NCBI GenBank assembly: GCA_017475705.1
Contig: JAFVFB010000012.1
Span: 60,525 to 124,524, forward strand
DNA length: 64,000 nucleotides
Direction of reading: 5' to 3'
DNA from: Alphaproteobacteria bacterium
Lineage (GTDB): Bacteria > Pseudomonadota > Alphaproteobacteria > RF32 > CAG-239
Both the position numbers and the translations under genes were made by a program. The notes below the pieces were generated by a model that worked only from the letters and a program-made list of their open reading frames with translations, did not search any database and had not been told where the DNA came from. The first letter of the stretch is position 1. Every line of letters begins with the position of its first letter. Of the stretch, positions 18,208 through 56,493 are shown piece by piece.

Positions 18208-19353
18208 TTATTCTTTATAAATTTTACTCCACAGAGGGATATTATTGCCGATTCCCGGAGCCAATTTTTTTGTTTCAATAAAAGCCATTTCCCCATTGTC
18301 AAACATAACGCGCATCCATGCTTTATCTGTTGTATAACCAGTAATTCTTACAGTGGTACCTACTTCAACTTCCCTATATGCATCAAATCCTTTATCAGCG
18401 CCATGCATAGCTGTTGTTTTGGTAATAACATGATATAGCTTATCTTTATCATAAATGTCTACAGGAATATCAAAAATTTTAGCAACAGCAACATCGCTAA
18501 AGGTCTTTTTCCCATCATTAAAGACAACAACTTGCTTAACTTGAGCTTTATCTTCGTTATCTGCACGCAAATAATCTAAATGCCAAATTCCCAAAATTAA
18601 GCACAAAAGACAAGCAAAGCCCCCAAAATAAAAAAGTTGCACCTGACGTAATTTTGCAAAATTCCATTTTCTTATAACAGGTAATTCAAAATTCCCAAGT
18701 TCGTTAATAAACTGATTAATATAAGCAAGTTGTTCTCGGTTGGCATACTGTTTCGCTTGCATAGCAGAAGATGCTGCCTCATTAATCTTTCCCTCTGCTT
18801 GATAAACCAACGCATTGTGCATAAGCAACGTAAGATTATCTTTATCACAATTGAATGCAAAGAGGTTTTGTAAAATAGCTTTAATATTAAGTCCAAAAGC
18901 GGTAATACCCCAAAATCCATAAAGCCAATTATGTTTAGTAATATTACGCACTACATTAATGGCTTCAGCCGGATTACAATAGTATATTTTGTTAATAGAT
19001 TGATGTCCCAAACCTTTTCCGGTAACCTCAATCATATGTATGGCGCGCAGGTTAATATCTTGTTGCCCATGCATATTATAGAGTAGAGCCAATGCCCCCA
19101 TGTCTGGAAAATTTGCTTTATCGTAAATCATGGAAAGAATGGTATATTTTAACCTACTTTGTTTATCTTTCAGAGTTTCATATGCTACAGAAAGGGCTTG
19201 AAACATATCCAATGCATTAGGGGATTTATTATGGTCAGGATGCCAAAATTTAGCAAGCCGACGATAGTTTTGCCTTATGTTTTCTTCAGATGCATCAGGG
19301 GTGACCTCTAAAATCTTAAAATATCCTAATTGATCAAATAAAACCTTATCCAT
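18208..19353 (-). CDS. J-domain (DnaJ-like) protein with TPR-like middle, one TM and C-terminal periplasmic domain
   Basis: 381 aa. Canonical J domain with HPD (YFKILEV...LAKFWHPDHN...AYETLKD). The TM segment is LFYFGGFACLLCLILGIWHL. Confidence 0.6.
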   Translation of the reverse strand: MDKVLFDQLGYFKILEVTPDASEENIRQNYRRLAKFWHPDHNKSPNALDMFQALSVAYETLKDKQSRLKYTILSMIYDKANFPDMGALALLYNMHGQQDINLRAIHMIEVTGKGLGHQSINKIYYCNPAEAINVVRNITKHNWLYGFWGITAFGLNIKAILQNLFAFNCDKDNLTLLMHNALVYQAEGKINEAASSAMQAKQYANREQLAYINQFINELGNFELPVIRKWNFAKLRQVQLFYFGGFACLLCLILGIWHLDYLRADNEDKAQVKQVVVFNDGKKTFSDVAVAKIFDIPVDIYDKDKLYHVITKTTAMHGADKGFDAYREVEVGTTVRITGYTTDKAWMRVMFDNGEMAFIETKKLAPGIGNNIPLWSKIYKE

Positions 19354-19354
19354 A

Positions 19355-20155
19355 TTAGTTATCTGCCTCCATTAGTTTTTGCGCAATATGTCTAATATCT
19401 GTTGCCGCTTCCGAAGATGGATAGCGAGATAATAATAATTCTTTGTTTCTTATAGTATCCCTAATACGAGTATCAAAGCGAACAATACCTAATAAATTAG
19501 GCATTTCCATGTTATGGCGTTCCACAGCTTTATACAACTCTTTATAAATTTTATAACCATCTTCAAACGAATTAACACGGTTAATAATCAAAAAACAGCG
19601 TGAATGAATATTCAGTTGGTAAAATAAGCGTAAAGTATCAAACGTTTTAACGAGATCACTGCTTTTTTCAGAACACATGAGCAAAATTTTCTCTGCAATA
19701 TGGCACAATCCCAACGTTTGTTCATTAATATTAGCGCCGACATCAATGATAGTATGCTGATAATCCTGCGCAAGGATAGCAAGGTCTTCTGCAAAAATAT
19801 GAATCCTTCCCAAAGGCATATTCTCAAGGAAATTATTTCCAGGAGATGCCGTCAAAATGTTAAAATCCTTATTTTTGTAGGCAGTCAAAAGTTGATTAAC
19901 TGTTTTTTGATGAGCGGCATATTCTTCAAGATACAAAGGGTTATTTAATAGAATATATGAGCTGATATTAGCAAGTCCACCATTTCCATCAACCAATAAG
20001 ACACGCTCTTTTTCGAGGTTAAGTGCATGCGCCAAAGTAAGAGCGCACCAGGATGTGCCAATATGCTCTGTTCCTGAAACAAAAGCTGAAATATGTTTAG
20101 GATTGCCGCTTTTTAAGAACAACCTTTTATATACTAAATCTAAATCTTCACTCAC
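19355..20155 (-). CDS. ParA/MinD-family protein with degenerate P-loop
   Basis: 266 aa with a MinD/ParA-like fold. The deviant Walker A position reads VSGTEHIGTS instead of KGGxGKT. Confidence 0.5.
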   Translation of the reverse strand: MSEDLDLVYKRLFLKSGNPKHISAFVSGTEHIGTSWCALTLAHALNLEKERVLLVDGNGGLANISSYILLNNPLYLEEYAAHQKTVNQLLTAYKNKDFNILTASPGNNFLENMPLGRIHIFAEDLAILAQDYQHTIIDVGANINEQTLGLCHIAEKILLMCSEKSSDLVKTFDTLRLFYQLNIHSRCFLIINRVNSFEDGYKIYKELYKAVERHNMEMPNLLGIVRFDTRIRDTIRNKELLLSRYPSSEAATDIRHIAQKLMEADN

Positions 20156-30244: not shown

Positions 30245-31372
30245 ATGGCAGATACAGAATTAGATAATTTCTTTTCAGCAGATTCGCAAACAAAAAAATC
30301 AACCACAGCAAAAAGTACTAAGCAAGAAGAAACCAATGATGACGATGGCTTTGATTTAGAAGATGAATTTTCCAAATTATTAAACGACTTTATTAACCAA
30401 GAAAATACCGCTCCTGTGCTACAAGATAAGTCAGATTCGGTATCAAATAGCCTGGATTCTCTGCAAACACCACAATGCCCTTTGGAATCAATGGTCACAG
30501 CTACACCAGTAGAAGAAACCTCAGCTTTAGATGATTTTGCCCAAACAGCACCAAACAATCAACAAGAAACGATGCTGGATGGTTTTGTTACAGAAAATAC
30601 CGCTGTTCAGACTGGAGCAGAACTAGATACTTTTATAACCAATGAACCTGCATCCTCAGAAATCAACGAAACAGATGGGCATTCAGGTCTAAAGCCGGAA
30701 GAACAAGAATTGGCACGTTCTTTGACCAACTTTCAAGATAGTATTTCCGCAATGGCAAACAAAAAGAACCTTAAATTGCCTAAAACAGACTATGAAGAAA
30801 CGATGTTAATGCCAAACTACAAACCGAGCGTAGGTAAAAAAATTGCTCAATATCTTTTAGACTGCTGGCCAATTATAAACAAATATGACCCTGATAATAT
30901 GAAGCGTCTAGCCCCCACGGCAACAGATGAGGAATATCTTTCTTTTGCAGAAAGCTTAAACGATACCTACATGCAGTTAGCCATAATTTCTTATGTGGAA
31001 ATCTTGATAAACATGGAAATATGCGAAGTTAGCTATGAACAGAAAAAAGCGGAAGTGCTAAAAAATCGTGCTAAAAGAGAGCTTTATGAAGAATATATGG
31101 AACTTCAAGAACGCAAAAAATTGTTTATAGAAAAACTTAAAGAAAAGAATTTTCCCATTGATGCAGAACGGCTGATTAGTAATTATTTTCGAGTCGCTCA
31201 AAAAGATCCAGATGGTTCTTTTGAGGCTCTAACCAAAAATCCTGCAACATTTTCGCCGATTCAAGTTGAAAAAATTCACCCAAAATTCTTTGGCTTAATA
31301 AAAGTAACACCTGAAGACGGAATAAAAGCAAACCAAAAAATAGGAAAGTTTATTAAAAATCTAAAAGTATAA
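30245..31372 (+). CDS. hypothetical protein with acidic disordered N-terminal half and helical C-terminal domain
   Basis: 375 aa. Strong RBS (AGGAGG). The first ~170 aa are D/E/S/T/Q-rich with no TM. First gene of the T4CP cluster. Confidence 0.5.
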   Translation: MADTELDNFFSADSQTKKSTTAKSTKQEETNDDDGFDLEDEFSKLLNDFINQENTAPVLQDKSDSVSNSLDSLQTPQCPLESMVTATPVEETSALDDFAQTAPNNQQETMLDGFVTENTAVQTGAELDTFITNEPASSEINETDGHSGLKPEEQELARSLTNFQDSISAMANKKNLKLPKTDYEETMLMPNYKPSVGKKIAQYLLDCWPIINKYDPDNMKRLAPTATDEEYLSFAESLNDTYMQLAIISYVEILINMEICEVSYEQKKAEVLKNRAKRELYEEYMELQERKKLFIEKLKEKNFPIDAERLISNYFRVAQKDPDGSFEALTKNPATFSPIQVEKIHPKFFGLIKVTPEDGIKANQKIGKFIKNLKV

Positions 31373-31419: not shown

Positions 31420-31461
31420 ATGCTAATATAACAGATATAAGACGACTCAAGGAGGCAAAAA

Positions 31462-33594
31462 ATGGCATGGTATGATGAAGATGCCCTCAAAAAAAGAAAA
31501 GATTTATATGAGGTACTAGAGATAGATATCAAAAATTGTGCTCGTGAAGAATATGCTAAAGAGGAAATAGAAAAACAATACCAAAAATTAAAAGTAAAAC
31601 ATAAACAAGACAGTGATGATTTGAAAGAACTTGAAGGTGCCTACAAGATATTAAGTGATGATGTTAAGCGTTCAGTTTATAATCAGATGCATAATATTAA
31701 ATTCGGCTTAGATGCTGTAAATCAAGAATTAAAAAATGATATAAATGATTTTCTTGGTAAGCCTGTTTATGATACAGGCACTCAAAAAAAACAAACAACA
31801 GATTCAAATAGTGCAGAAAATACACCGCCAAAAACTTCTCAACAAGATGAACAGGGTGCGAATAAACAACAAAAAACCCAAAGAGAGAATACCTCTCCCA
31901 ATATTGAAGAGTTCACACAGTCTTTTGACGGAGAATCAAAGGCTTATAAAGATATAGAGCTGGATATCTATGGTAATGTAAAAGAAAAAAAGAAAAAAAG
32001 TCAAAGTGCCGGTGGTAAAATTAAAGCACCGGAGCGCAAGCCTTCTAAAGGTGGCGGTGGTGGTGGTAAAACCATTATGGAAGTTTTCTGGAACGAAATT
32101 ATCGTTGCCGCTTATGAAAAGAGCTTAGATTTAGCTGTAGACTTCACATTAGATTTTGCAGATTGGGTTTTATTTAATGCTTATGACCCGCAAACTGTGC
32201 AAAAAGAAGAAGCCCAAAAGGAAAAGAAAAGTATTTGGGACTATGCGCGTGACGTTTACAAAAAATATAGCAAAGATGCAGACGGTAGCATGGAAATATT
32301 CCAAAAAGCTCATACTGAATTAATGAAAAACATAGAACTGGCAAAAAATGGCATAGCCCCGAAATGGAAAGTTTGGCCGAACGAGAAAGAGCCATCGTTC
32401 TTTAAACAAGTCGTAGAAATTGCTAAAAAAGCAGAGGAAGATCCCCATTCCCCGGAAGCGAAAAAATGGGAACGTTTTTGTTCAATGCCGGAAATTATGG
32501 AAAATTTATATGAAAAAGAGCTGCAATTAAGGAAAATGTCTATTTTCTTAGCTACAGAAGAAACACAGCTAAAAATTGCCGCATATAAACATCCATCAGA
32601 AATAACGTACAGGCTAAAAGAAATGAAAGAATTAAAGTTAGGTCCTGAAAAGAACTATGAACTGTACCAAAAAAATATGCAGCGTTTAATCACGGAATTA
32701 AGAGATAAAATCAAAGAGGATACTTCTGTAAATCGCCAGATTGGTGCCCAATTAGATGAGATGGAAAAATTAGTAAATAACAAGGATATTAAGAAAGAGT
32801 TCAATAATATCACATCTGGATTGTCCGCACACATTAAAGCAATCGGCAACATTACACCTGAGTTTACTCTATCACCCTCCATTCTAAAAAATTTAAAAGA
32901 AATAGATAAAATAGGAGGCTCAACCTCTAATATCGATAAATATAAAAAAGCAGTGAGTGCTAAGGTGATTGAAATTCAAAGCTTAGCTAAGGGTAATCAG
33001 CCTATAGATAAAGAAATAAACAAACAATTAGCAGAGATAGAAAAAGCCCTCAAAAATCCTAAAGCAACAGTAGAAGATTTAGTAAAAATAGTTGGCAAAA
33101 CAACAGCTTCAATGCGTGAAATTACGCCTCTTCGCCAAGAAATAGATGAATCAAGCCAAGCTTATTATGATCGCATGCGCAAAAATATCGATAAAATTAA
33201 AGTTATCTATGGTAGAGACCCGGAACAATGCCGTGAAAACATTAAGCAATATCTTAAAAATATTACCGAGAATATTAAGCAAGCTCAACCAGAAATAGAT
33301 AATTTTGCTCATGCCAGCCATTTAAAACGTGCGTTGATAAATACAGGGCATGCTGCATATAATTCTGTTAAAGGGCTAATGGGTAAAAAAGATCCAATAG
33401 CTGCAGATGCTATTATGGATAGGATGGAACAAAAGGCCTCAGATGGTTTCAAAAAAGCAAATTCTATAATCGATGATTTTGAAATAAATGGACGGAGATT
33501 AAGAGACTATGCTGTTGCGACCGAGACACCAAATCCATTTAAGAATAAGCAAAGCGTATTTAATGCATATAAAGATTATTCAGGGGGCCGTTAA
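31462..33594 (+). CDS. large helical protein with N-terminal degenerate J-like domain (HPD replaced by KQD)
   Basis: 710 aa. Residues ~14-75 align to the DnaJ J-domain (DLYEVLEI...EIEKQYQKLKVKHKQD...AYKILSDDVKRSVYNQ), but the HPD tripeptide is absent. Followed by a Q/K/T-rich linker and a G6 run. Confidence 0.5.
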   Translation: MAWYDEDALKKRKDLYEVLEIDIKNCAREEYAKEEIEKQYQKLKVKHKQDSDDLKELEGAYKILSDDVKRSVYNQMHNIKFGLDAVNQELKNDINDFLGKPVYDTGTQKKQTTDSNSAENTPPKTSQQDEQGANKQQKTQRENTSPNIEEFTQSFDGESKAYKDIELDIYGNVKEKKKKSQSAGGKIKAPERKPSKGGGGGGKTIMEVFWNEIIVAAYEKSLDLAVDFTLDFADWVLFNAYDPQTVQKEEAQKEKKSIWDYARDVYKKYSKDADGSMEIFQKAHTELMKNIELAKNGIAPKWKVWPNEKEPSFFKQVVEIAKKAEEDPHSPEAKKWERFCSMPEIMENLYEKELQLRKMSIFLATEETQLKIAAYKHPSEITYRLKEMKELKLGPEKNYELYQKNMQRLITELRDKIKEDTSVNRQIGAQLDEMEKLVNNKDIKKEFNNITSGLSAHIKAIGNITPEFTLSPSILKNLKEIDKIGGSTSNIDKYKKAVSAKVIEIQSLAKGNQPIDKEINKQLAEIEKALKNPKATVEDLVKIVGKTTASMREITPLRQEIDESSQAYYDRMRKNIDKIKVIYGRDPEQCRENIKQYLKNITENIKQAQPEIDNFAHASHLKRALINTGHAAYNSVKGLMGKKDPIAADAIMDRMEQKASDGFKKANSIIDDFEINGRRLRDYAVATETPNPFKNKQSVFNAYKDYSGGR

Positions 33595-33597
33595 AAT

Positions 33598-34089
33598 ATG
33601 AAAAAACTTAAAAACTTTTTCCGCTTTTGCACAATAAGCACCATAACATTGGTGCTTTTAACCATTGTAGCCAGATTTATTTTTCGCATGATATGGCATT
33701 TTGATATCTTAGATAAACACTCATATCAGCTAATGGCAGAATACTGGAATAGTGGCGGCATCTTTAATTCCTTACAAGATTATAGTCTCGGTTTAATGTT
33801 TCTGTCTTTGCCGATTATCTGGCTCTGGATAAGTTATAAAACATATAGATTTGGTTTGATGAGATTATTATCTCTTCCAATTACAAAGATATATCGGTAT
33901 TTAACGCGGCCGGAAACCTATGATGTGGAACACGTGAAAATAAAAAATCTGCGCGGCAAAGAAAAAAATATAGAGGAACTCATCGCTGAAAAGATAAAAG
34001 AAGAAAACCCTAATAGTGGCGCGGCTCATACCGTAAAAAATTTGCGAGCACAAATTTCTGCAAGAATAGGAGAAAATAAAAAACAATAA
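33598..34089 (+). CDS. small membrane protein, paralog of the N-terminal module of the next gene
   Basis: 163 aa with 2-3 TM. Shares the motif WHFDIL...YWNSGG...SLP.IWLW with the N-terminus of the 34145 ORF. Confidence 0.45.
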   Translation: MKKLKNFFRFCTISTITLVLLTIVARFIFRMIWHFDILDKHSYQLMAEYWNSGGIFNSLQDYSLGLMFLSLPIIWLWISYKTYRFGLMRLLSLPITKIYRYLTRPETYDVEHVKIKNLRGKEKNIEELIAEKIKEENPNSGAAHTVKNLRAQISARIGENKKQ

Positions 34090-34144: not shown

Positions 34145-35437
34145 TTGAAACCATTGCTAATTATATTAAAAACTCTGATAATAGGCTATCTCTGGAGCAT
34201 CGTCTTCATAGATGGTATCAGGGTTTTGTTGTTAGTAAATTGGCATTTTGATATTTTTTTAAGAGAGCATTGGCGTTTATTAAGTGATAAATGGAATAGC
34301 GGAGCTCCGATTAGCCGCTCAGAGTTTGCATTTTTTCTAATCCTTGTTAGTTCAATACCATTATGGGTAGCCGGCTGGATAGGCTTGTGTTTAATAAAAT
34401 GGGATAGATTTTTCAAAAAGCTATTTATGTGGCCAGTGTATTTATACAAGAAATTAACATTGAAGAAAAAGCCGCCGATCGTAATAAAGAAAAAATCTGT
34501 CACAGAAGAAACAAAAACAACCTCCAAAGCCAGTGTGGCTAAAAAAGTGCCTGTCAAAAAGGTGGGTTTACCTTCAGCAACCTTAATGCAATCAAATGTT
34601 AACAACAATATGTCATCATCAATGCGGCCAACCTCAAATTATATAGCAGCAAGCAAGAAGAATCCAGAAGCACCAACGACGCATGCTTTATTTAATTTTG
34701 ATGACGATGATTTTGATTTGGATTTTGACTTAGATAAAAAAACACCTGAAAAAGAAGATTATGGCATTCCCTCTGCGCTAAAAGTAGACGAACCACAACC
34801 CAAAGAAAAAGCTAAAGATTCAGCAGATAGTATCATTTCAAATTTTGACACCAATTTCTTAGAGAACAAGCCTAAAAACAATAATCACAAAGACAACCAG
34901 TCAAAGCCGAAATCCACACCGGCTCCAGCAAGAGAATCTCACACGCCGATTTTAGATATCCTAAAACAAAAAGGGTATGACATCATTCCATCTGCAGTTA
35001 TTAAAAATACTACCATTGACTATATCGCTGTGTCCAAGCAACAACTGATCCTATGTCTGGTAGATAAAGAAATTGGCGACTGGTTAGCAGACGAGGAGAA
35101 ATTTAATGATGAAGAGCCACTATGGTTTTCAGAAAGTAGCCATAGAATATCTCCAGTACGCAAAATAGATGTTGCAAGAGATATTTTACGTACTAAGCTT
35201 ATTGCTGCAGATATGAATTTTGAAATTGTTTCTTATGTCATCATACAATCAGGCAACATCATTAACGCTGAAGATATGTTTGAAATATGGAGTGAGATGA
35301 ATATTAATGTAACCAGAATTAATCGCGGCAGCCCTAAAGAAATTCGCTTATTTTCTAAATCATTAGAAAATTGTGAAGATAAAATAGATAAAAACATATT
35401 TGAAAAACTTAAAAAACTAATTCGTAGTTTGGCGTAA
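34145..35437 (+). CDS. membrane-anchored protein: shared 2-TM N-module, K-rich disordered linker, C-terminal NERD/restriction-endonuclease-like domain (tentative)
   Basis: 430 aa. N-terminus NWHFDIFL...KWNSGAP...SIPLWVAGW is paralogous to the preceding ORF. The C-terminal ~180 aa (IDYIAVSKQQLILCLVDKEIGDW) resembles a NERD-type core. Confidence 0.45.
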   Translation: MKPLLIILKTLIIGYLWSIVFIDGIRVLLLVNWHFDIFLREHWRLLSDKWNSGAPISRSEFAFFLILVSSIPLWVAGWIGLCLIKWDRFFKKLFMWPVYLYKKLTLKKKPPIVIKKKSVTEETKTTSKASVAKKVPVKKVGLPSATLMQSNVNNNMSSSMRPTSNYIAASKKNPEAPTTHALFNFDDDDFDLDFDLDKKTPEKEDYGIPSALKVDEPQPKEKAKDSADSIISNFDTNFLENKPKNNNHKDNQSKPKSTPAPARESHTPILDILKQKGYDIIPSAVIKNTTIDYIAVSKQQLILCLVDKEIGDWLADEEKFNDEEPLWFSESSHRISPVRKIDVARDILRTKLIAADMNFEIVSYVIIQSGNIINAEDMFEIWSEMNINVTRINRGSPKEIRLFSKSLENCEDKIDKNIFEKLKKLIRSLA

Positions 35438-37629
35438 TTATTTAATAGAGGAATAAATGGTAAGAGAAAGAGGGAAAGAGTGGGAAGAATATGATAAAGC
35501 CGTCCGGTGGATGGCTACCACGTTTATCATATCTGTCGTGGTCGCAATGGTGCTGGTTTATTTGTCTCAGCCTATAGCCTATCTGGTGCAAAAAGGTGTA
35601 TCCAAAGAAAACGTTGATGTTGCAGTAAGATTTCTGAAAAAATCACTGGCAGATCCCGGATTTTTATATGATAGATATATAAGATGGTTCAAGCAAGCAA
35701 TGCGTTACAGTGGAGCTTTTAAGCCCAGCTTATGGATACCGATATTGCCATTTATAATGTTTCCACTGATATTAATTATTGGAGGCATTAAGTGTCCATA
35801 TAAATTCCAGTCCAATATTCATGGTTCTGCACATATCGCTACTTTAAGAGATATCGAAAAGATGGAACTGCTTGGCTTCGATGGATTTTGCATGGTTGTT
35901 GGCAAGTTCCAAGGTAAGATGTTGAAATTAAAAGAAACATTATCAACACTATGCTGTGCACCTCCTGGTACAGGTAAAACAGTAGGTATTGTTATTCCAA
36001 CAATTTTTAATTCTGAAGGTCTGAGTATCATTGTAAACGACCCAAAACCCGAGTTATGCTACAAAACTACGGGAGCAAGAAATAAAGTTGGTCCGGTATT
36101 TGTTATAAACTGGGGGAAAGAAGATAATCCAGAAACTGGTGAATACTATCCAAGCTGGAACCCACTTTCACCAGGGGCCTTGCCAATGCCTGGTCCAGCG
36201 CGAGATTTGTACGTAGATTCAATGTGTAATACGCTGGTAGAAGATCCCAAGGGTAATGCTGACCCGCACTGGTCAAAAACAGGTCGTAGTGCGTTGTGCG
36301 GTTTCATACATTTTATATCTTCAAAATGCGAGAGAGCTCTTGCTAATGAAAAGTTTATCCAAAAAATTTATGAAGGTTCACTAACAGCAGAAGACAAAGC
36401 AGAATTAATTAATTACTATAGTGACATGAGCATGGGTGGCCTGCGTACAAATGCCGCTCAAGCTATTTCAGATATACAAAATGATAATCTGACTATAGAA
36501 AATTATTTACCGATAGGGACATGGAATCTTCTACCGGAAAAATGGATAAATCATGAACCGTGTATGGCTATGATATTGGAATGGATAACCAGTTCACAAA
36601 TAGAGCAGGCTAATGATATTCGCCGCCGACTGGAAGAAGGTGACCAAATGGCTGCAATGGCAGACCCAATGCGAGATTTGCTAGATGCAGCAGTAGAAGA
36701 GGCGAACAATTATGGTTATTCCCGCCGCTGTGTAACGGAGCTAAGTGCCTTAAGTGCAATGCCGGATAAAGAGCGCGGTTCTGTTTTATCAACAGGTTTA
36801 ACCGGTATTGGTATATTTAAGAACTCAGCCGTCGTTGCCCGAACAAGCTTTTCTGATATCCAATTTAAAGATTTGCGAGGGATGAAAGACCCTGTCACTG
36901 GTGAATGGCGGCCAATTTCCGTATATCTTTCTGTAAATCAAACAGATGCGCAAGCCTTAAATCCTATCAGCGCAACATTCGTAGACTTGATGAGTGCTTA
37001 TTTAATTTCTAATCCACCTAATGCGGTTAATAAATCAGATGGCAAAATGGGGCCATTTCCAGTACTATTTGTGCTCGACGAGTTTCCGCAAATGCCAAAA
37101 TTAAAAGCGGTTATAGACGGTCCTGCTGTTGGTCGTGGTCAAAAGGTTGCATATTTATTGATAGGACAAGATTTAGGGCAAATTTCTGGGAAATACGGTA
37201 AGGATGACCTCGAAACAGTTATCTCAACCACGGCCTGCAAAGTTATCTTATCACAAAACAATGAACAAACCGCACAGCGTTTTTCAAAGATGATTGGTAA
37301 TAAAACAGTACAAACCACATCTTTTTCACGCAGTGAAGGAGGTATAAGCAACAAAGACTTTAATCCATTTTCTAAAAATGTAAGTTACCAATTGCAAGGT
37401 GTCTCAGCCATTAGTACCAATGACCTATTGAGTCTACCGATGCTTAAGCAAGTTGTTTTAATGCAAGGCTACATTGATACACCGATTATGGCAGATTCAC
37501 CTCGTTGGTATCTTGATAAAAAGATGAGAGAGCTGGCATCATTACCTCCATCGCCAAATGTTCCGGACTGGATTGTTGCTCAAAGAACAGATGAAAATGA
37601 AGATATACTGTCCAAACTTGGAATAGATT

Positions 37630-40564
<2,935 letters not shown>

Positions 40565-41287: not shown

Positions 41288-41582
41288 ACTTTACTTTTCT
41301 TATTTTTATTTATAGAGTAAAAGCGGACAGGGTGTTCTTGTCTGGGGTGTGGAAACCTCTTCAAGGAAATAGAAGGAACGTATGATTGTCCGTCTCACAG
41401 TTGTGTTTATTTAAATACATGACTGGAAGGCGACAAAATACGCCGCTTTGAGACTCATATATAACTGCAGATGTATATGCCGTTTAGGCTAATATGTCGC
41501 ACAATCCTTGAATTGTTTCCAACTTCCAGTCGCTTTATAGCGACTTTTTCTTTGACTTAGGAGCTAAAAAAGGAAGTTGATT

Positions 41583-44500
41583 ATGAAGAAACAAAAGAAC
41601 AAGCAAGCTAAAAAAGCATCAAAATTGGCAAAGGCCGAGAACTTAAAGAAAAAACCAGCACAATTTATTACGGTTAAAAATGCCGAGGGTGATCCCGATA
41701 CAACCGCCGAAATCCTCATTCAAAACCAAATCGATTATACGCCGAAAGTATCGGTGATTATTCCAGTTTATAATGTGGAACAATACCTGCGCGAATGCTT
41801 GGATAGTGTTGTTAACCAAACATTGAAAGAGATAGAAATCATCTGCGTGGACGATGGCTCAACCGATTCTTCATTGGAAATCCTCAAAGAATACGCCGCA
41901 AAAGACAAGCGTATGACAGTTATCCGCCAGCAAAATCTCCATGCCGGTGTCGCCCGCAATGCCGGTCTATCACAAGCAAAAGGAGAATACCTCAGCTTCC
42001 TCGATTCCGACGACTTCTTCGAACTCAATATGCTAGAGGAGATTTATGACAAATCTAAGCAAAATGATGACGATATTTTTATTTATAATTATGATTTTTA
42101 TGACAATGACAAGAACTTATACAAAGAATCATATAAATATAATTCAAGGTATTTGCAACAAGAGGGGTTTTCTGCAAAAGATTATCCGAAAAATATCTAT
42201 TTTTTAGCGACACCAAATGCATGGACAAAGCTCTTCAAAAGAACCTTAATTGTAACCAACAGTATTTACTTTGAAAATTGCCCAAGTTGCAACGATATTA
42301 CTTTTGTAGATACGGCTCTTTCTGTTGCGGAAAGGATAAACGTATCAAACAATGTATATGTACATTACAGAATAAATTCAGGTATAAATATATCAAACAA
42401 CAGAGAAGTAAAAGCTTTTTCAATCATTCATGCGATGAAAAAACTAAAGTCAAATCTTGAAAGACTAAAAGTGTATAAAATATTTCGAGATAATTTTGAA
42501 AAGCAGTTAGTTGTTCGTGCAAAATCGGAGATTTTAAAAGCTGATACAGTTTTTAAAACAAAATTCTTAGCAGAATTTAAAAATATTTTTGCTGATGATT
42601 TATACAATGAACTTCTGAAAGAATTAGAGGTAAAAGTCTCAATCATTATTCCAATTTATAATGCTGAAAAATATTTACGTGAATGCTTGGATAGTGTTGT
42701 CAATCAAACTTTAAAAAATATTGAAATTATTTGTGTCAATGATTGTTCTACTGATGGTTCATTAGAAATTATAAAAGAATATGCCAGTAAAGATGGGCGT
42801 ATCATAATTGTCAATAATGATAAAAATACCGGAGCTCCAGGTGCGGTAAAAAATATTGGTATGCAGCATGCCTCAGGTGTATATATTGGTATTGTCGACT
42901 CTGATGATTATATTGATTTAAACTATTTTGAAGAGTTGTATAATGTTGCAGTAAAAAACAATGCTGATATTTCATCTATATCTAGTATTATTAAATTTTC
43001 AGGAAAAAAACAAACACCTATTATACTTGATACAAAAGGGAAAACAATACTTAGCAACCCAAAAGACAAAACCCCACTAATGAGAATATCTAGCACAAAT
43101 TCTGCACGAATATACAGAAGGGAACTACTGGAAAAATACCATCTTAGATGCTATGATAAATTTTCAACAGCAGAAGACAACTTATTTTCGATGGAAGTTA
43201 TGAGTGTGGCTAATAAAATAGCGATGGTGCCAAATATAACTTACCATTATAGGCAACGTGAAGGGAGTGTCACCGGACGAAAGAGAACCAAAGAACATTT
43301 TAATATTTTTGATATTTACCTAATGATAGATAAATTCATATCTAAAACCTTTAGCGGAGAAGAAAAAAACTTATATTTAACAGCTGTTAACGAACGGAAA
43401 AAGTTAGATTTTAAATGGTTTTTAAATTCTTTAGATATCAACTATTTACAAGAATTTAAGGAAAAACTATTAAATGTATTTCCTTTGGTATACAAACACT
43501 TGTTCTTAAATGAAATACCTATAATTTTAGCATCTGATGATAACTATGCGCCATTTATGTACACAACAATGGTATCAATTTTAGAAAATGCAAAAGAAAC
43601 AACTTATTATGACTTTTATCTTATGGTTCCATCTGCATTTTCTAAAAACAACGAAAAAACAATTTTGACCCTAAAAGATAAATACAATTGCGATATTCAA
43701 TTTTTGGATATGAAAGATGCTTTCTCGGACTTGACTATGCAAATATCGCATATTACATCGCCAACTTATTACCGTTTGCTTGCAGGAGATTTATTGCCTA
43801 AAGAATATGATAAATGTATTTATCTGGATGTTGATATCTGTGTTTGCCAAGATTTGAGCGAACTTTATAATATTGACATGGGTAATAATTATATTGCCGG
43901 AGTTGTTGCAGCAGGTTATTATTTTTCTGAAGCGGCAAACTGTAAACGATTAAATCTGCCATCAATGCGAACATATGTTAATGCCGGTGTTTTGCTGATG
44001 AATTTAAAACAAATTCGTCAAGACAGGATGACAGAGAAGTTTGTTGAATTATCTAAGAAAAATTACTCATCTCAAGACCAAGATGTTGTAAATATTGCGT
44101 GTTATGGCAAAATTATAACATTGCCACCTAAATACAATGCGATGACTACGAGGCTACAGCAAAATGACGCGCGTTTAAGAGATTTATATTCAGAAGAAGA
44201 TATTTGGAAAGCAAATAAACATCCATATATTATTCACTATGCAGATAAAAATAAACCATGGAATAGTAGCTTTGTCTATATGGAACAATACTGGTGGAAT
44301 ATTGCAAGAAAAACTCCATATATTGATTTATTTAAAATAGATGCATCATTTTATAAAACTCAGCTAGAGCAATGGTGGTATAGAGCGAAGAAAACTTCAT
44401 TAAACCTAGATAATCCTAAAACTTTTAATGAAAAAATTCAATGGATGAAACTATATGATTCGACACCGCTTAAAACGCGTTTAGCAGATAAATATCTGGT

Positions 44501-46046
44501 GCGTGACTGGGTAAAGGAAAAAATCGGTGAGGAATTTTTGATTCCGCTGTTAGGTGTTTATGATAGGTTTGAAGATATTGATTTTGACAAGCTTCCAAAT
44601 CAGTTTGTCATCAAATGCAATCATGGTAGTGCTTACAATATTATTGTTAAGGATAAATCAAAGCTGGATTTAGTAGATGCAAAAGCAAAACTTGATAAGT
44701 GGATGAATGAAGACTTTGCTTTTAAGTCGGTAGAACTTCATTATCGTGACATAGAACATAAAATCATTATTGAAAAGTATATGGATGATGGAACTGGGGA
44801 TTTAAGAGATTACAAATATACTTGCTTTAATGGAAAACCAGAGTTTATTTGGATAGACAGCGATAGACATACTAAACACAAACGTAATTTATATGACTTA
44901 AACTGGAAACAATTACCATATAAAGTTAATTCGCATTATGACACATTTCCATCACCAGATAAACCAGAACGCTTAGATGAAATGACACAACTTGCTAAGA
45001 TATTAAGCGAAGGATTTTCTTATGTTCGTGTTGATTTCTACATAATAAATGGGAAAATTTATTTCGGAGAAATGACATTTACATCGTCTAGTGGAACTGA
45101 AGATATTGTTCCTGAAAGTTTTGATAGGTATTTAGCTAAAAAGATTAAACTTCCCAAACTCGCCTACAATATTGATACCGGTGAGTATTATAAATTGCCG
45201 AAACCAAGTAAACTCGCCCCATATCTCTTCTTCCCGTATTATCTGTTCAAGGTGGCGCAGATGCGTAAGAAGGTGTTTGCGTTAACAACAGATAAAATAT
45301 TATCTGAATTTACCAAGATGCGGATAGATATTAAAAATAGCGGCACTGCTAAAAATGCTTTGTCTATCACGGCACCAAAAGCAAATATTGATACCCCAGC
45401 TTGGTTTACAAATGCAAGGGGTATCGGACAGATGGTGCAAGGCAATAACCTCAAACAAACCATAAAAATCAAAGCAATTAATGATGGAAAATTAATCTTT
45501 GATTTCCGCGGGCAAGATAAAAGAGATAAAGAAAATCAACGCATTCCGCTATGGTGCGACTATCAGTCTATTAAAATTGATGGCAAAAAGATTAATGATA
45601 AAAAAGAGCAAACATGGCACGATAAACCTTATCACTATGAAATGCCCGTAAAAGATGGGCAAGAGGTTAAAGTTGAAATCGAACAAACCTATCATCGCTA
45701 TATGGAAGGTGATCTTCGCGATACAATATTAGAGCTGTTTCCTAGTGACAAATACATTACCGAAAATATTGATAAATTAACCGCGAAAATCTTTCATTTT
45801 ATAGAATCTAAAGCATCTGCTAAAACATTAAAGCAAAAACTTACAAAAAAAGAGGCGAGCCTAAAGCTATTTAAGGTTTTGCCGATTGCCAGTTTTCGGC
45901 ATAGCGGTGGCAAAAAAGTTTGGAAGATTTTTGGCCTGCCAGTGTTCAAAAAGCGCATGACAAATAATGGAAACACCACAAAATACTACATACTAGGCAT
46001 AAATTTGCTGCAATTAAATAAAAAGACAACCGATGTCTTGCGTTAG
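41583..46046 (+). CDS. multidomain glycosyltransferase: GT2 + GT2 + GT8 + TupA-like ATP-grasp + unknown C-terminal domain
   Basis: About 1487 aa from the ATG 7 nt after the RBS AGGAAG. Two GT-A modules (VIIPVYN..DGSTD..DSDD), a GT8 module (DVDICV, HYADKNKPWN), a TupA-like ATP-grasp module (KCNHGS...) and a ~280 aa C-terminal domain. Confidence 0.8.
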   Translation: MKKQKNKQAKKASKLAKAENLKKKPAQFITVKNAEGDPDTTAEILIQNQIDYTPKVSVIIPVYNVEQYLRECLDSVVNQTLKEIEIICVDDGSTDSSLEILKEYAAKDKRMTVIRQQNLHAGVARNAGLSQAKGEYLSFLDSDDFFELNMLEEIYDKSKQNDDDIFIYNYDFYDNDKNLYKESYKYNSRYLQQEGFSAKDYPKNIYFLATPNAWTKLFKRTLIVTNSIYFENCPSCNDITFVDTALSVAERINVSNNVYVHYRINSGINISNNREVKAFSIIHAMKKLKSNLERLKVYKIFRDNFEKQLVVRAKSEILKADTVFKTKFLAEFKNIFADDLYNELLKELEVKVSIIIPIYNAEKYLRECLDSVVNQTLKNIEIICVNDCSTDGSLEIIKEYASKDGRIIIVNNDKNTGAPGAVKNIGMQHASGVYIGIVDSDDYIDLNYFEELYNVAVKNNADISSISSIIKFSGKKQTPIILDTKGKTILSNPKDKTPLMRISSTNSARIYRRELLEKYHLRCYDKFSTAEDNLFSMEVMSVANKIAMVPNITYHYRQREGSVTGRKRTKEHFNIFDIYLMIDKFISKTFSGEEKNLYLTAVNERKKLDFKWFLNSLDINYLQEFKEKLLNVFPLVYKHLFLNEIPIILASDDNYAPFMYTTMVSILENAKETTYYDFYLMVPSAFSKNNEKTILTLKDKYNCDIQFLDMKDAFSDLTMQISHITSPTYYRLLAGDLLPKEYDKCIYLDVDICVCQDLSELYNIDMGNNYIAGVVAAGYYFSEAANCKRLNLPSMRTYVNAGVLLMNLKQIRQDRMTEKFVELSKKNYSSQDQDVVNIACYGKIITLPPKYNAMTTRLQQNDARLRDLYSEEDIWKANKHPYIIHYADKNKPWNSSFVYMEQYWWNIARKTPYIDLFKIDASFYKTQLEQWWYRAKKTSLNLDNPKTFNEKIQWMKLYDSTPLKTRLADKYLVRDWVKEKIGEEFLIPLLGVYDRFEDIDFDKLPNQFVIKCNHGSAYNIIVKDKSKLDLVDAKAKLDKWMNEDFAFKSVELHYRDIEHKIIIEKYMDDGTGDLRDYKYTCFNGKPEFIWIDSDRHTKHKRNLYDLNWKQLPYKVNSHYDTFPSPDKPERLDEMTQLAKILSEGFSYVRVDFYIINGKIYFGEMTFTSSSGTEDIVPESFDRYLAKKIKLPKLAYNIDTGEYYKLPKPSKLAPYLFFPYYLFKVAQMRKKVFALTTDKILSEFTKMRIDIKNSGTAKNALSITAPKANIDTPAWFTNARGIGQMVQGNNLKQTIKIKAINDGKLIFDFRGQDKRDKENQRIPLWCDYQSIKIDGKKINDKKEQTWHDKPYHYEMPVKDGQEVKVEIEQTYHRYMEGDLRDTILELFPSDKYITENIDKLTAKIFHFIESKASAKTLKQKLTKKEASLKLFKVLPIASFRHSGGKKVWKIFGLPVFKKRMTNNGNTTKYYILGINLLQLNKKTTDVLR

Positions 46047-53698: not shown

Positions 53699-54421
53699 TT
53701 AATCAATAACTTTTGCCACAGTCAAAATATCAACAGATTTTGCACCAAACTTCAAAAGAGTTTTGGTGCATTCTTTTGTCGTAGAACCCGTCGTATAAAC
53801 ATCATCAATCAAAACGATTCTCTTTCCTTTTATCCGTTCAGGGTGAGTAATTGTAAAAGCACCTTTAATATTTTTATGTCTTTGTTTCCCATCACACTGT
53901 GTTTGTGGTAGAGTGTATTTAATTTTCTTGAGAACATCATAGTCGACAATAATATTAGTCATTTTTGCCAGTTCACCAGCTAACACTGCAGATTGATTAT
54001 ATTTACGCTTAAGCAGTCTGGTATAGTGCAATGGCACAGGAACAATCAAATCAGCACCAGCCTCAAAGATATCCTTTCCAGCCAGATAGAGCCACCGCGC
54101 CAGCAATTTTTTATTTTCGATGTGCGCTGCAAATTTAAAGTCAAGCACTAGCCGTTTAGAAAAATTATCATATCGAATGGCTGCACGAGAATAGCGGAAG
54201 TTGGGTCTTTTATTAAGGCAAGAAACACAATATAAATCATCTGCCTCAGTGCTGCCAGTATACAAAGGTCGTCCACAACATTTGCAGTATGGTTTAGAAA
54301 TAAATGTAATATTATTAAAGCAGTCAGCGCACAGGCTGTCATGAGAAGCTAAAACTACACCACAGCACAAACACCGATGTGGCAACAAAAAGTTAATGAG
54401 AGTTCGAAAGATATTTATCAT
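53699..54421 (-). CDS. comF: ComF-family phosphoribosyltransferase
   Basis: 240 aa. N-terminal Cys-pairs (CLCCG...CADC; CKCCGRP...CVSC) and a C-terminal PRTase motif (VLIDDVYTTGST). Confidence 0.7.
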   Translation of the reverse strand: MINIFRTLINFLLPHRCLCCGVVLASHDSLCADCFNNITFISKPYCKCCGRPLYTGSTEADDLYCVSCLNKRPNFRYSRAAIRYDNFSKRLVLDFKFAAHIENKKLLARWLYLAGKDIFEAGADLIVPVPLHYTRLLKRKYNQSAVLAGELAKMTNIIVDYDVLKKIKYTLPQTQCDGKQRHKNIKGAFTITHPERIKGKRIVLIDDVYTTGSTTKECTKTLLKFGAKSVDILTVAKVID

Positions 54422-55284
54422 AACCTTGAGAGTTCTTCTATCAAAGAGAGTAAATTATCGACCACAATGATTCCGGCACTTTCTAACAGTTGCTTTTTTT
54501 CAGCAGCAGTTGTAATTCCTCGGCATATAATATCAGAAGCTAAGCCGACATTATTATCCATATAGGCTTGATCATCAACCATTAAAGCAATAACCGGCTT
54601 TTTTTTCGACATATTTTTATAAGCATGAGCCATTTCTATTTCATAATTACCACCGTAGCCCCCAATGGTCACAATAGCCTTTGTCTGCTTATCATTATTA
54701 AATTCTTTAATGATATCAATAAATCCTGTCCCGATAATAAAGTCATCACCAAGGCCAACAATTGTCGATTCGCCAAAACCGGCACGATTAATTTCTAACA
54801 CAGTTTCATATGTAAGAGTAGAAGAACGTGAAATGATGCCAATATTGCCTGAACGATGGATGTTATCAGGAAATGTTCCCATATAAGCCACCTGCGGTGT
54901 GATAATTCCTGGTGTATTAGGCCCGATAAGCAAAGTTTGAGAATTTTCTAACTCATGACGAATTTCCATCATGTCATTAACGGGAATGCCTGAAGTAATA
55001 GCAACAACAAGTTTAAGTTTTGCTCTTATTGCCTCAATAATAGCGTCTTTAGCAAATTTTGCCGGTACAAAAATAACAGAAGCTGTAGCACCAGTTTTAT
55101 CCTTTGCCTCCTGCACCGTATTAAATAAAGGAATTCCCAAATGTTCCTTTTCTTTTTTATTTGGCACAACACCAGCAACGACATTCGTTCCATATTTAAT
55201 AGCGCGCGGCGTATGGAAAGATGCTTGCGTTCCAGTAAGACCTTGTACAATAACTTTAGTATGTTCGTCAACCAGCACAGCCAT
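54418..55284 (-). CDS. sucD: succinyl-CoA ligase alpha-subunit-like protein lacking the catalytic phospho-histidine
   Basis: 288 aa. Good SucD similarity (VQGLTGTQASFHT, GATASVIFVPA, NIGIISRSSTLTYE). Where GHAGAII is expected the sequence reads VGLASDI. Its stop overlaps the comF start (ATGA). Confidence 0.65.
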   Translation of the reverse strand: MAVLVDEHTKVIVQGLTGTQASFHTPRAIKYGTNVVAGVVPNKKEKEHLGIPLFNTVQEAKDKTGATASVIFVPAKFAKDAIIEAIRAKLKLVVAITSGIPVNDMMEIRHELENSQTLLIGPNTPGIITPQVAYMGTFPDNIHRSGNIGIISRSSTLTYETVLEINRAGFGESTIVGLGDDFIIGTGFIDIIKEFNNDKQTKAIVTIGGYGGNYEIEMAHAYKNMSKKKPVIALMVDDQAYMDNNVGLASDIICRGITTAAEKKQLLESAGIIVVDNLLSLIEELSRL

Positions 55285-56493
55285 CTACAAGTCCTCCTCA
55301 ATAGCCTCTTTGAGCAAGGCTAAACCAATCTGAGTATCATTTGCGATCTTAACAGATAAATTAGATGTTTGTAAGATATTTATCGCTTCTTCTTTATTTG
55401 TCCCCTCAAACCGCGCAACAAGAGGAATATTCAGACCAAGGTCGTTAGCCACACTAATAATTCCATCAGCAATAAGGTTACAGCGAGTAAATCCACCTAA
55501 AATATTGATAAAGATACCATCAACTTTCGGGTTGAGCATAATCAATTTAATACCGGCGGTAATTTTATCTCTGTCAACACCACCTTTAATATTTAAAAAA
55601 CACGCCGTACACAGGCCTTGTTTTTCAGCTTCGCTCATAGTATTGAAAGCCAAACCATTACCATTAGAAATTAAGCCGATTCCGTGGTCCAGTTATTTAT
55701 ATTGAAAGCCGTATTTAGCAGCAATGACTTCTCTTTCATCAATTCCTGCATTATCCGTTAGTTTTAGTATATCCTGATGTCGGTATAGTGCATTTTGGTC
55801 AAAAACAATTTTAGCATCTAAAGCCCAAATTTTTCCATATCTATCAATTCCAAAAGGGTTAATTTCAAGCATTGTTGCATCGTAGTGATAAAATATCTTA
55901 AGAGCTTTGTTAAGAAAACTTTTGAGTGAAAGATGATTACCTCTAAATCCCATAAAATCAATAACTTGAGATAGCTGATTTGCAGATATTTCTTTTTGCA
56001 AGCCCAAATTAAGTTTTAAGATATTTTCTGGGTGTTGTTGTGATAAAATAACAATATCATCATTAGTCCTACCATTAACTGCTGTTAGTAGCAACATAAC
56101 AGAAGCAGATATACGGTCGATAATAAATCCGAGATAATACTTTTTGACGACCTTGATATACTCTTCGACATAAACACGGCTAACAAGGCGTCCTTTTGCT
56201 CCAGTCTGGTTCGTAATAAGCATGTTTTCAAGCATTTTGTCAGCGTTTTCATAAACATCATTTAAAGTTTTAGAAAGCCGAATTCCGCCTTTTCTTCCAG
56301 CCCGTTTATCTAAAAATTTACCGATATTACGCGAACCGGCTAAAATTTGTGCTTTAACCATCCACGGTCCGGTAGATGAAATTTTTTGCGCAGCCTTTTG
56401 TGCCTCTAGAGGAGTATAGGCAACCAAACCTGTGGGGATAGGAATTCCAAAATCCTTAAATATTTTTTTTGCCTGATACTCATAAATATTCAT
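55285..56493 (-). pseudogene. sucC: succinyl-CoA ligase beta-subunit-like gene interrupted by one in-frame TAA
   Basis: Two ORFs (55693-56493 and 55285-55653) are in the same frame. They are separated only by a TAA at 55693-55695 (…YGFQYK*LDHGIGLISNGNG…, compare canonical NYVALDGNIGCMVNGAG). The glycine-rich loop is also altered (AGSRNIGK). Confidence 0.6.

Follow-up and report, generated by a model that had tools for sequence, protein, structure and literature searches.

Substitutions in the invariant His-Pro-Asp (HPD) tripeptide of J-domains abolish stimulation of the Hsp70 ATPase. J-like domains lacking HPD are already known, and the closest functional analogy to the present one is Pam16 (Tim16, Magmas), an HPD-less J-like protein that partners Pam18 at TIM23, the import motor of mitochondria (PMC3806816, PMC8605242). 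Also known are lineage-specific regulators that bind the type IV coupling protein (T4CP), such as CagZ of Helicobacter pylori, a protein that attaches to the all-alpha domain of Cag-beta and controls the ATPase of the latter (PMC9886983). The substrates of type IV secretion systems (T4SS) need unfolding for transfer (PMC5826034), and the channel of a T4CP is narrow (PMC9886983). How substrates come to be unfolded, or stay so, before the coupling protein passes them into the channel is understood only for a few dedicated chaperones. Here, we present an analysis of g2, a gene at positions 31462-33594 of a 64,000-nucleotide stretch of an Alphaproteobacteria bacterium (contig JAFVFB010000012.1; the whole stretch is hereafter called the window), which encodes a 710-aa protein in a six-gene operon (g1 to g6) with a T4CP and carries a J-like N-terminus with Lys-Gln-Asp (KQD) in place of HPD. 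With moderate confidence, we read g2 as a cytoplasmic accessory or adaptor protein of the T4CP module, in which the HPD-less J-domain would be a structural or binding module and the gene would not be phase-variable.

The resemblance of g2 to Pam16 lies in a J fold without HPD and, at the level of concept, in linking a J or J-like module to a translocation ATPase; Pam16 itself serves to regulate or tether rather than to activate Hsp70 (PMC3806816, PMC8605242). The label "Pam16-type", used for g2 in an initial annotation of the window, holds as an analogy only, as g2 has no Pfam Pam16 match (E up to 0.1). Unlike Pam16, g2 is bacterial and cytoplasmic and continues after its J-like domain into a helical protein of 600 aa; its translocase would be a T4CP rather than TIM23, and the degenerate state is recent and lineage-specific. 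CagZ and the Legionella proteins DotM, DotN, IcmSW and LvgA are similar to g2 in being clade-restricted, largely helical and encoded beside a T4CP, but g2 is much larger and carries a J-type domain, and no homology to CagZ, DotM/N, IcmS/W, LvgA, TraM or the like was found in Pfam, NCBIfam, PDB sequences or Foldseek searches of the PDB.

A 2025 T4SS nomenclature review makes no mention of DnaJ, J-domain, Hsp70 or NERD. A full-text literature search combining "type IV coupling protein" with "J-domain" returned nothing, as did searches on RF32 with T4SS and on NERD with coupling protein. New here are the pairing of a J-type domain with a T4CP-operon protein, the chromosomal T4CP-NERD operon and the g2 family itself. 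A J-domain in such a protein would suggest that the general Hsp70 system is employed directly at the coupling protein, and the orthologs with and without HPD offer a natural experiment on a J fold unable to activate Hsp70. The operon, which joins a T4CP and a membrane-anchored PD-(D/E)xK protein between rpoH/rluD and ligA, is moreover highly conserved in abundant gut bacteria.

The J-like N-terminus of g2

The features of g2 and its immediate upstream region are as follows (the aa positions are those of the g2 protein).

31450-31455 (+): Shine-Dalgarno sequence AGGAGG, 6 nt upstream of ATG 31462, read from the sequence
31462-33594 (+): g2, 710-aa soluble protein, GenBank MBR2273807.1 "hypothetical protein" (Alphaproteobacteria metagenome-assembled genome)
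31492-31701 (+): predicted degenerate J-domain, residues 11-80, with helices I-IV at 15-18, 29-46, 52-65 and 67-76
31603-31611 (+): K48-Q49-D50 at the HPD position in the helix II-III loop, codons aaa caa gac, from alignments
31753-32061 (+): disordered polar linker, residues ~98-200, hypervariable between orthologs and with the highest ratio of nonsynonymous to synonymous substitution rates (dN/dS) in g2 (0.24)
31784-31791 (+): A8 homopolymer inside the linker, coding for QKKQ, read from the sequence
31927-31947 (+): motif D-G-E-S-K-A-Y, residues 156-162, more conserved than any other feature of the family, in an otherwise disordered region
32050-32067 (+): GGT GGC GGT GGT GGT GGT, coding for Gly197-202, read from the sequence
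32068-33591 (+): all-alpha body, residues 203-710, from the secondary structure of the AlphaFold2 (AF2) model
32647-33231 (+): diverged tandem duplication of ~95 aa, residues ~396-490 and 491-590, a helical segment

We accept the start at ATG 31462 because AGGAGG lies six bases upstream, and the J-like N-terminus is very likely translated as annotated. In a hydropathy analysis g2 had no hydrophobic 19-mers and neither a transmembrane segment nor a signal sequence, and the protein is therefore predicted to be cytoplasmic; this solubility is compatible with access to DnaK.

The Pfam J-domain profile PF00226 aligns to g2 residues 14-74 over its whole length (profile positions 1-63 of 63; 18.8 bits, E 0.0018), and the NCBIfam DnaJ models likewise give weak matches at the N-terminus. 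Taken alone the Pfam match is borderline, and the assignment is solid because five further independent lines agree with it. A PDB sequence search with a profile of g2 and two homologs yielded 35 weak matches, the majority of them J-domain chains aligned to residues ~7-77. The g2 profile also recovered an unrelated true J-protein (P0062, E 1.8e-4) from 1.8 billion representative proteins. When the three HPD-less sequences (the window protein, its counterpart in strain L007 and the ortholog P0002) were aligned by hhalign to a small set of seven true J-domains, three of them taken from this analysis, the probability was 97.2% (E 3.5e-11, 62 columns). In the AF2 model of g2, which was built from a 50-sequence alignment and has a mean predicted local distance difference test score (pLDDT) of 81.4, residues 11-80 adopt the four-helix J topology at pLDDT >90, and Foldseek superposes the region on the J-domain of Ydj1 (5vso) over 72 columns (TM-score 0.60, root-mean-square deviation 3.3 Å, probability 0.94); AF2, Foldseek and hhalign thus concur in a four-helix J fold with a helix II-III hairpin. 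The most decisive line is the ortholog P0016, which occupies the identical chromosomal slot (rpoH-rluD, then g1, g2, g3, g4) and bears a bona fide N-terminal J-domain with HPD present as YHPDRN (PF00226 67.6 bits, E 1e-18). Judged from sequence comparison and the predicted model, residues 11-80 of g2 are a true but degenerate J-domain, in line with the J-like region without HPD that the initial annotation had placed at residues ~14-75.

The HPD tripeptide itself is absent, with KQD in its place in every alignment. The same holds for L007 and L008, independent assemblies of a 92%-identical strain from a wolf-gut metagenome, in which KQD is preceded by Tyr (YKQD) where the window has His, and the ortholog P0002, 42% identical to g2, has DNKD at this position. 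Because KQD recurs in the independently assembled strain and P0002 has no HPD either, the loss is, on these alignments, genuine and no sequencing artefact, and the replacement described in the initial annotation stands. Since substitutions of HPD abolish Hsp70 ATPase stimulation, the domain would be no canonical co-chaperone.

Further departures from the DnaJ of Escherichia coli surround this position. g2 has a six-residue insertion between helices I and II, and its loop after the HPD position is ~7-8 residues shorter; the equivalents of R22, K26 and R36 are E37, Q41 and S51, leaving helix II with two of its four basic residues, while K23, Y25, R27 (as K42) and D35 are kept. In common with canonical PF00226 J-domains, g2 has the four-helix fold, the same register of helices II-IV, the N-terminal placement and the signatures DLY..L (helix I), Y40 (helix II) and AY.ILSD..KR..Y (helices III-IV). 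Unlike DnaJ, it has no glycine/phenylalanine-rich region, zinc finger or DnaJ C-terminal domain. The P0016 ortholog, with its HPD, is a full member of the canonical J-domain proteins.

The g2 family, its operon and evolutionary rates

An exhaustive profile search identified 61 representatives of the g2 family at 50% clustering, as against only three relatives in a word-indexed search. Typical members have 450-640 aa and an acidic disordered start, and lengths range over 464-710 aa. A local J-domain hidden Markov model found a J or J-like N-terminus only in P0016 (a true J-domain), the window protein with its strain variant, and P0002; its alignment had included the P0016 J-domain and P0062, so those two match by construction. 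About 47 of the 50 full-length representatives have no J-domain at all. This distribution marks the J-domain as a rare N-terminal add-on to an older family of ~500-aa proteins, and the module would be dispensable for the basic role of the family because ~47/50 representatives do without it.

Conserved throughout the family are the G-x-S-x-A-Y motif (residues 157-162), a basic KAPE(R/H)K stretch followed by the Gly run, a long amphipathic helix (205-239), N290, W302 and P311, and the C-terminal tail (P692, F700). Among 50 family members Y162 never varies, and conservation reaches at least 90% at G157, S159 and A161; the AF2 model places a short helix at residues 158-161. The linker preceding the motif is poorly ordered, with pLDDT <50 at residues 100-155, and is replaced by a poly-Thr stretch in P0002. 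Within the helical body, a MAFFT alignment revealed a ~90-aa insertion in g2 relative to all orthologs, which corresponds to a tandem duplication limited to the window/L007 strain pair. Self-BLAST did not detect this repeat; Smith-Waterman alignment with shuffles did (score 66 vs 29.9 +/- 5.3, z 6.8, reached in 0/1000 shuffles), and each copy can be aligned with the one present in P0002. The window protein is ~100 aa longer than P0002 because of this duplication, which in part explains its extra length within the family. In a body-only scan, residues ~522-626 (33025-33340) gave sub-threshold Pfam matches to MLKL_N (22.7 bits vs a gathering score of 27) and RPW8, and the MLKL_N match recurs in family member P0005; these four-helix-bundle matches are probably noise of helical composition.

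g2 stands in an operon with the following genes.

30245-31372 (+): g1, 375-aa soluble protein; N-half acidic, with repeats of the LDxF motif; C-half helical and conserved
33598-34089 (+): g3, 163 aa, with an N-terminal hairpin of two transmembrane segments paralogous to that of g4
34145-35437 (+): g4, 430 aa, with a two-transmembrane hairpin, a disordered acidic linker and a C-terminal NERD / PD-(D/E)xK-like domain
35457-37679 (+): g5, 740-aa T4CP of the VirD4/TraG type, with two transmembrane segments, Walker A (GTGKT), Walker B and an acidic C-terminal tail
37630-38448 (+): g6, polytopic membrane protein of 272 aa, the first 50 nt of its gene lying within the end of the T4CP gene

We compared the window with L001-L010 and L012-L015, following the gene order as far as each contig reaches. 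Every locus recovered has rpoH and rluD (-), then g1-g2-g3-g4-T4CP-g6 (+), then ligA, and the order is kept in the most divergent family members (P0053, P0055) and in a GTDB representative labelled "uncultured Acetobacter sp.". Encoding next to the T4CP is thus co-conserved with g2 at all loci examined, which bears out the placement of g2 in a T4CP cluster, and the six-gene operon is, by this comparison, vertically inherited and chromosomally fixed. There is no terminator-like site on the + strand between g1 and the T4CP stop, the sole + strand match lying inside g6; the promoter and terminator scan as a whole was at chance level. No Rfam family matched between 28000 and 41000.

The T4CP of the operon (PF02534 1.1e-54, with PF12696 and PF10412, and VirD4-like in NCBIfam) carries all three Pfam T4CP domains and in this is like the T4CPs of alphaproteobacterial megaplasmids, to which it is 34-38% identical. 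On Sphingosinicella p1, the T4CP gene is preceded by a T4SS protein gene, virB9, virB10 and a gene for a T2SS/T4P/T4SS-family (VirB11-like) ATPase. Unlike the megaplasmid genes, g5 lies in a housekeeping chromosomal setting (rpoH, rluD, ligA, infC), flanked by five unknown genes and without VirB genes or a relaxase.

Identities to the window proteins were taken from five genomes (L001, L002, L005, L009 and L010) and from the sister strain L007; the ranges for T4CP and g6 rest on four genomes, as the L005 contig ends before both.

T4CP: 86-90% (four genomes), 98% (L007)
rpoH: 86-91% (five genomes), 99% (L007)
g4: 69-74% (five genomes), 95% (L007)
g6: 66-68% (four genomes), 97% (L007)
g1: 58-64% (five genomes), 91% (L007)
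g3: 51-55% (five genomes), 91% (L007)
g2: 29-42% (five genomes), 91% (L007)

Across the 120 best homolog clusters, the T4CP is 72-100% identical. Between the window and L007, dN/dS (NG86 method) was 0.13 for the whole of g2, 0.06 for its core, 0.09 for the J-like domain, 0.24 for the linker and 0.03 for the T4CP. Because of its dN/dS of 0.09, the HPD-less J fold is, by this measure, under purifying selection: it is maintained, not decaying.

In a neighbour-joining tree of flanking and operon genes, the window, L007 and the genome of P0002, which are exactly the HPD-less copies, group together with 95% bootstrap. L009, which has no J-domain, joins the window clade (89% bootstrap), and the HPD-bearing L005 forms no clean clade with the HPD-less copies. 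As the genomes with a J-domain are not cleanly grouped, the tree does not establish that the domain was gained once; it is compatible both with one gain followed by losses and with two independent gains.

Proposed role and alternative explanations

As an adaptor, g2 would have as its core a ~500-aa all-alpha scaffold standing behind a disordered arm with the conserved G-x-S-x-A-Y motif, a candidate docking motif. It would serve a module made up of g1 to g6, that is, the VirD4-type ATPase, the membrane-anchored NERD/PD-(D/E)xK protein and the other membrane partners, on which it would dock plausibly via the G-x-S-x-A-Y arm and/or the C-terminal tail. A J-domain would have been fused to its N-terminus in a few lineages. 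That of P0016, with HPD, would both recruit DnaK to the coupling protein and activate DnaK there, while in the window lineage the J fold would have been kept as HPD became KQD and the loop shortened, with loss of canonical co-chaperone activity; the degenerate domain would now be a structural or binding module, not a catalytic one. An adaptor or regulator role, as proposed in the initial annotation, is a reasonable inference because HPD is absent from two independent strains and a 42%-identical ortholog and yet the domain is under purifying selection. A more far-reaching version, which we regard as rather unlikely, would see in the operon a vertically inherited, chromosomal T4CP-NERD module of gut Alphaproteobacteria in which the J-domain of the adaptor originally brought DnaK to the coupling protein, as a bacterial counterpart of the Hsp70-driven PAM import motor, with the window copy a Pam16-like, HPD-less regulatory derivative. 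If true, the module would provide the first example of a type IV coupling ATPase with a hard-wired Hsp70 system.

Several results weigh against the adaptor reading. The Pfam alignment that had been suggested as a check covers the whole profile, but its 18.8 bits fall below the gathering score of 27.8, so that membership of PF00226 is formally missed. The body has no relatives outside its own family in Pfam, NCBIfam, PDB sequences or PDB folds, the best body match of the full model in Foldseek against the PDB being generic long-helix proteins at E 0.09. g2 is by far the fastest-evolving gene of the operon, which is unusual for a core structural subunit, and most of its family lacks the J-domain altogether. 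The link of g2 to the T4CP, g1, g3 and g4 is one of adjacency, and the window, otherwise a housekeeping chromosome, holds no T4SS channel genes (VirB/Trb).

Much of this evidence also bears on other explanations. The J-like domain could be a functionless relic in the course of being lost, the rest of g2 doing the work. The missing HPD, the shortened loop, the ~47/50 representatives without the domain and the grouping of the J-less L009 with the window clade, which is compatible with domain loss, all speak for this; yet dN/dS over residues 11-80 is on a par with the conserved core and far under that of the linker, the fold is predicted at pLDDT >90, and the fold-determining DLY..L and AY.ILSD..KR..Y are common to the window protein and P0002 at 42% overall identity, so that we hold a relic to be unlikely. 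HopI1, a J-domain effector of type III secretion, engages the Hsp70 of its recipient. Were g2 likewise a translocated substrate of the T4CP whose J-domain engages recipient Hsp70, its fast evolution, its long disordered arm of variable length (464-710 aa), a conserved tail at the C-terminus (P692, F700), conceivably a secretion signal, and the need of T4SS substrates for unfolding would all fit. We nonetheless consider it distinctly unlikely that g2 is an effector: its operon position is fixed in every lineage, very divergent ones included, whereas genes for effectors tend to be dispersed and to come and go; the dN/dS of 0.13 means purifying selection and carries no arms-race signature; its C-terminus is only weakly basic; no T4SS channel was found in the window; and the loss of HPD would disable any hijacking of Hsp70. 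The J-like domain might instead act in the manner of Pam16, pairing with a true J-protein (the one encoded at 18208-19353, or DnaJ) and tethering or damping DnaK activation at the translocase. Pam16 and Pam18 do heterodimerise via their J-type domains at a translocase (PMC3806816, PMC8605242), and g2 combines a retained, selected J fold without HPD with a true HPD J-protein in the same window. That protein, however, is encoded 12 kb away in an unrelated context, g2 has no Pfam Pam16 match, and the HPD of P0016 speaks for a J function that was direct at the outset, not for pairing; such pairing seems to us quite improbable.

The initial annotation had further suggested that slippage in the A8 or the GGT/GGC tract could turn g2 on and off, which would make it a contingency locus; the comparison of the window with the sister strain renders this very improbable. 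Both tracts are present within the open reading frame (ORF), at 31784-31791 and 32050-32067, and the Gly run does vary in length among distant orthologs (G6, G5 and G4). The A8 tract is, however, short for an A/T switch and unremarkable, because a genome of 35% G+C yields such runs routinely: it is one of 17 A/T runs of at least 8 bases in the 64-kb window. In L007 and L008 its position is occupied by AAAAACCA (A5CCA), in which the interrupting substitutions change Lys to Pro. In the GGT run no more than four units are perfect, and slippage there cannot switch the gene off because triplet changes stay in frame; g2 thus has no frame-shifting hypermutable tract, the only candidates being A8 and this frame-preserving repeat. 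In L007 the Gly tract reads GGA GGC GGC GGT GGT GGT, equal in length and with synonymous codon changes, and g2 is intact at 2133 nt (710 aa) in both strains. The variation in tract length that the initial annotation had proposed to look for across strains is therefore not seen between the two compared, and the data lend no support to phase variation of g2. All the features that had been described in g2 are real; the tracts among them are at chance level, with no sign of length variation.

Operon partners and other loci in the window

The proteins encoded around g2 have few recognisable relatives. PHROGs and PADLOC returned nothing for any of the six operon proteins, and a reading of the operon as phage or as a known defence system was dropped on these grounds. 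PDB sequence searches of the T4CP, g4 and g1, with single sequences and profiles, also gave nothing, and g1 has no match in Pfam, PDB, PHROG or PADLOC. That g1 is a paralog of g2 was ruled out (hhalign probability 0.1%). Its N-half (30245-30750) contains five to six L-D-(S/G/N)-F repeats conserved across genomes, and in the disordered linker of g4 (34680-34740) the block FNFDDDDFDLDFDFD hardly varies; both are short acidic-aromatic motifs that resemble docking sites.

The hairpins of g3 and g4 (33598-33840 and 34145-34400) share the loop WHFDI..W..WNSG (BLASTP of g3 vs g4, E 8e-7) and matched no Pfam family, and g6 matched no family in standard or lenient Pfam scans. Lenient Pfam scans likewise gave no VirB3, VirB6 or VirB8-type match for g3, g6 or the hairpin. 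The C-terminal tail of the T4CP is strongly acidic, and the overlap of the T4CP and g6 genes (37630-37679) suggests translational coupling. For the C-terminal domain of g4, Pfam NERD matches the window protein at 16.5 bits (profile positions 15-109 of 111) and its homolog P0266 at 24.8 bits, above the gathering score of 22.1. The best Foldseek matches of this domain in its AF2 model are NucS/EndoMS, AF1548, R2 RLE domains and nickases, with probabilities up to 0.99 at E values of only ~0.02. The putative active site (35015-35080, residues 292-309) has invariant D292 and D307-K308-E309 where the canonical form would be E-x-K, and may be a non-canonical or inactive nuclease site.

Beyond the operon, the window encodes a separate J-protein, which we list here with the other loci that drew attention.

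18208-19353 (-): 381-aa J-protein with intact HPD (PF00226 68.5 bits), outside the operon
19355-20155 (-): 266-aa ParA/MinD-like ORF
41577-46046 (+): 1489-aa fusion of two GT2 domains, a GT8 domain and a TupA-like ATP-grasp domain
54418-55284: sucD
55285-56493 (-): sucC, apparently split

The alignment of the 381-aa protein contains HPD, which confirms that g2 is distinct from it, as had been claimed. It has no DnaJ zinc-finger or C-terminal domains and lies immediately downstream of the ParA/MinD-like ORF, with which it may form a dedicated pair. In sucC, a 266-aa ORF (55693-56493) corresponds to the ATP-grasp N-part, and a 122-aa ORF (55285-55653, -), directly upstream of sucD, resembles the C-terminal CoA-ligase part; the gene appears split by a frameshift or stop and is either a pseudogene or the product of an assembly error. 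The counterpart of the 1489-aa glycosyltransferase fusion in L007 (16131-18749 of that locus) has 872 aa and GT8 only, and since the two strains are 92% identical, this locus is variable between close strains.

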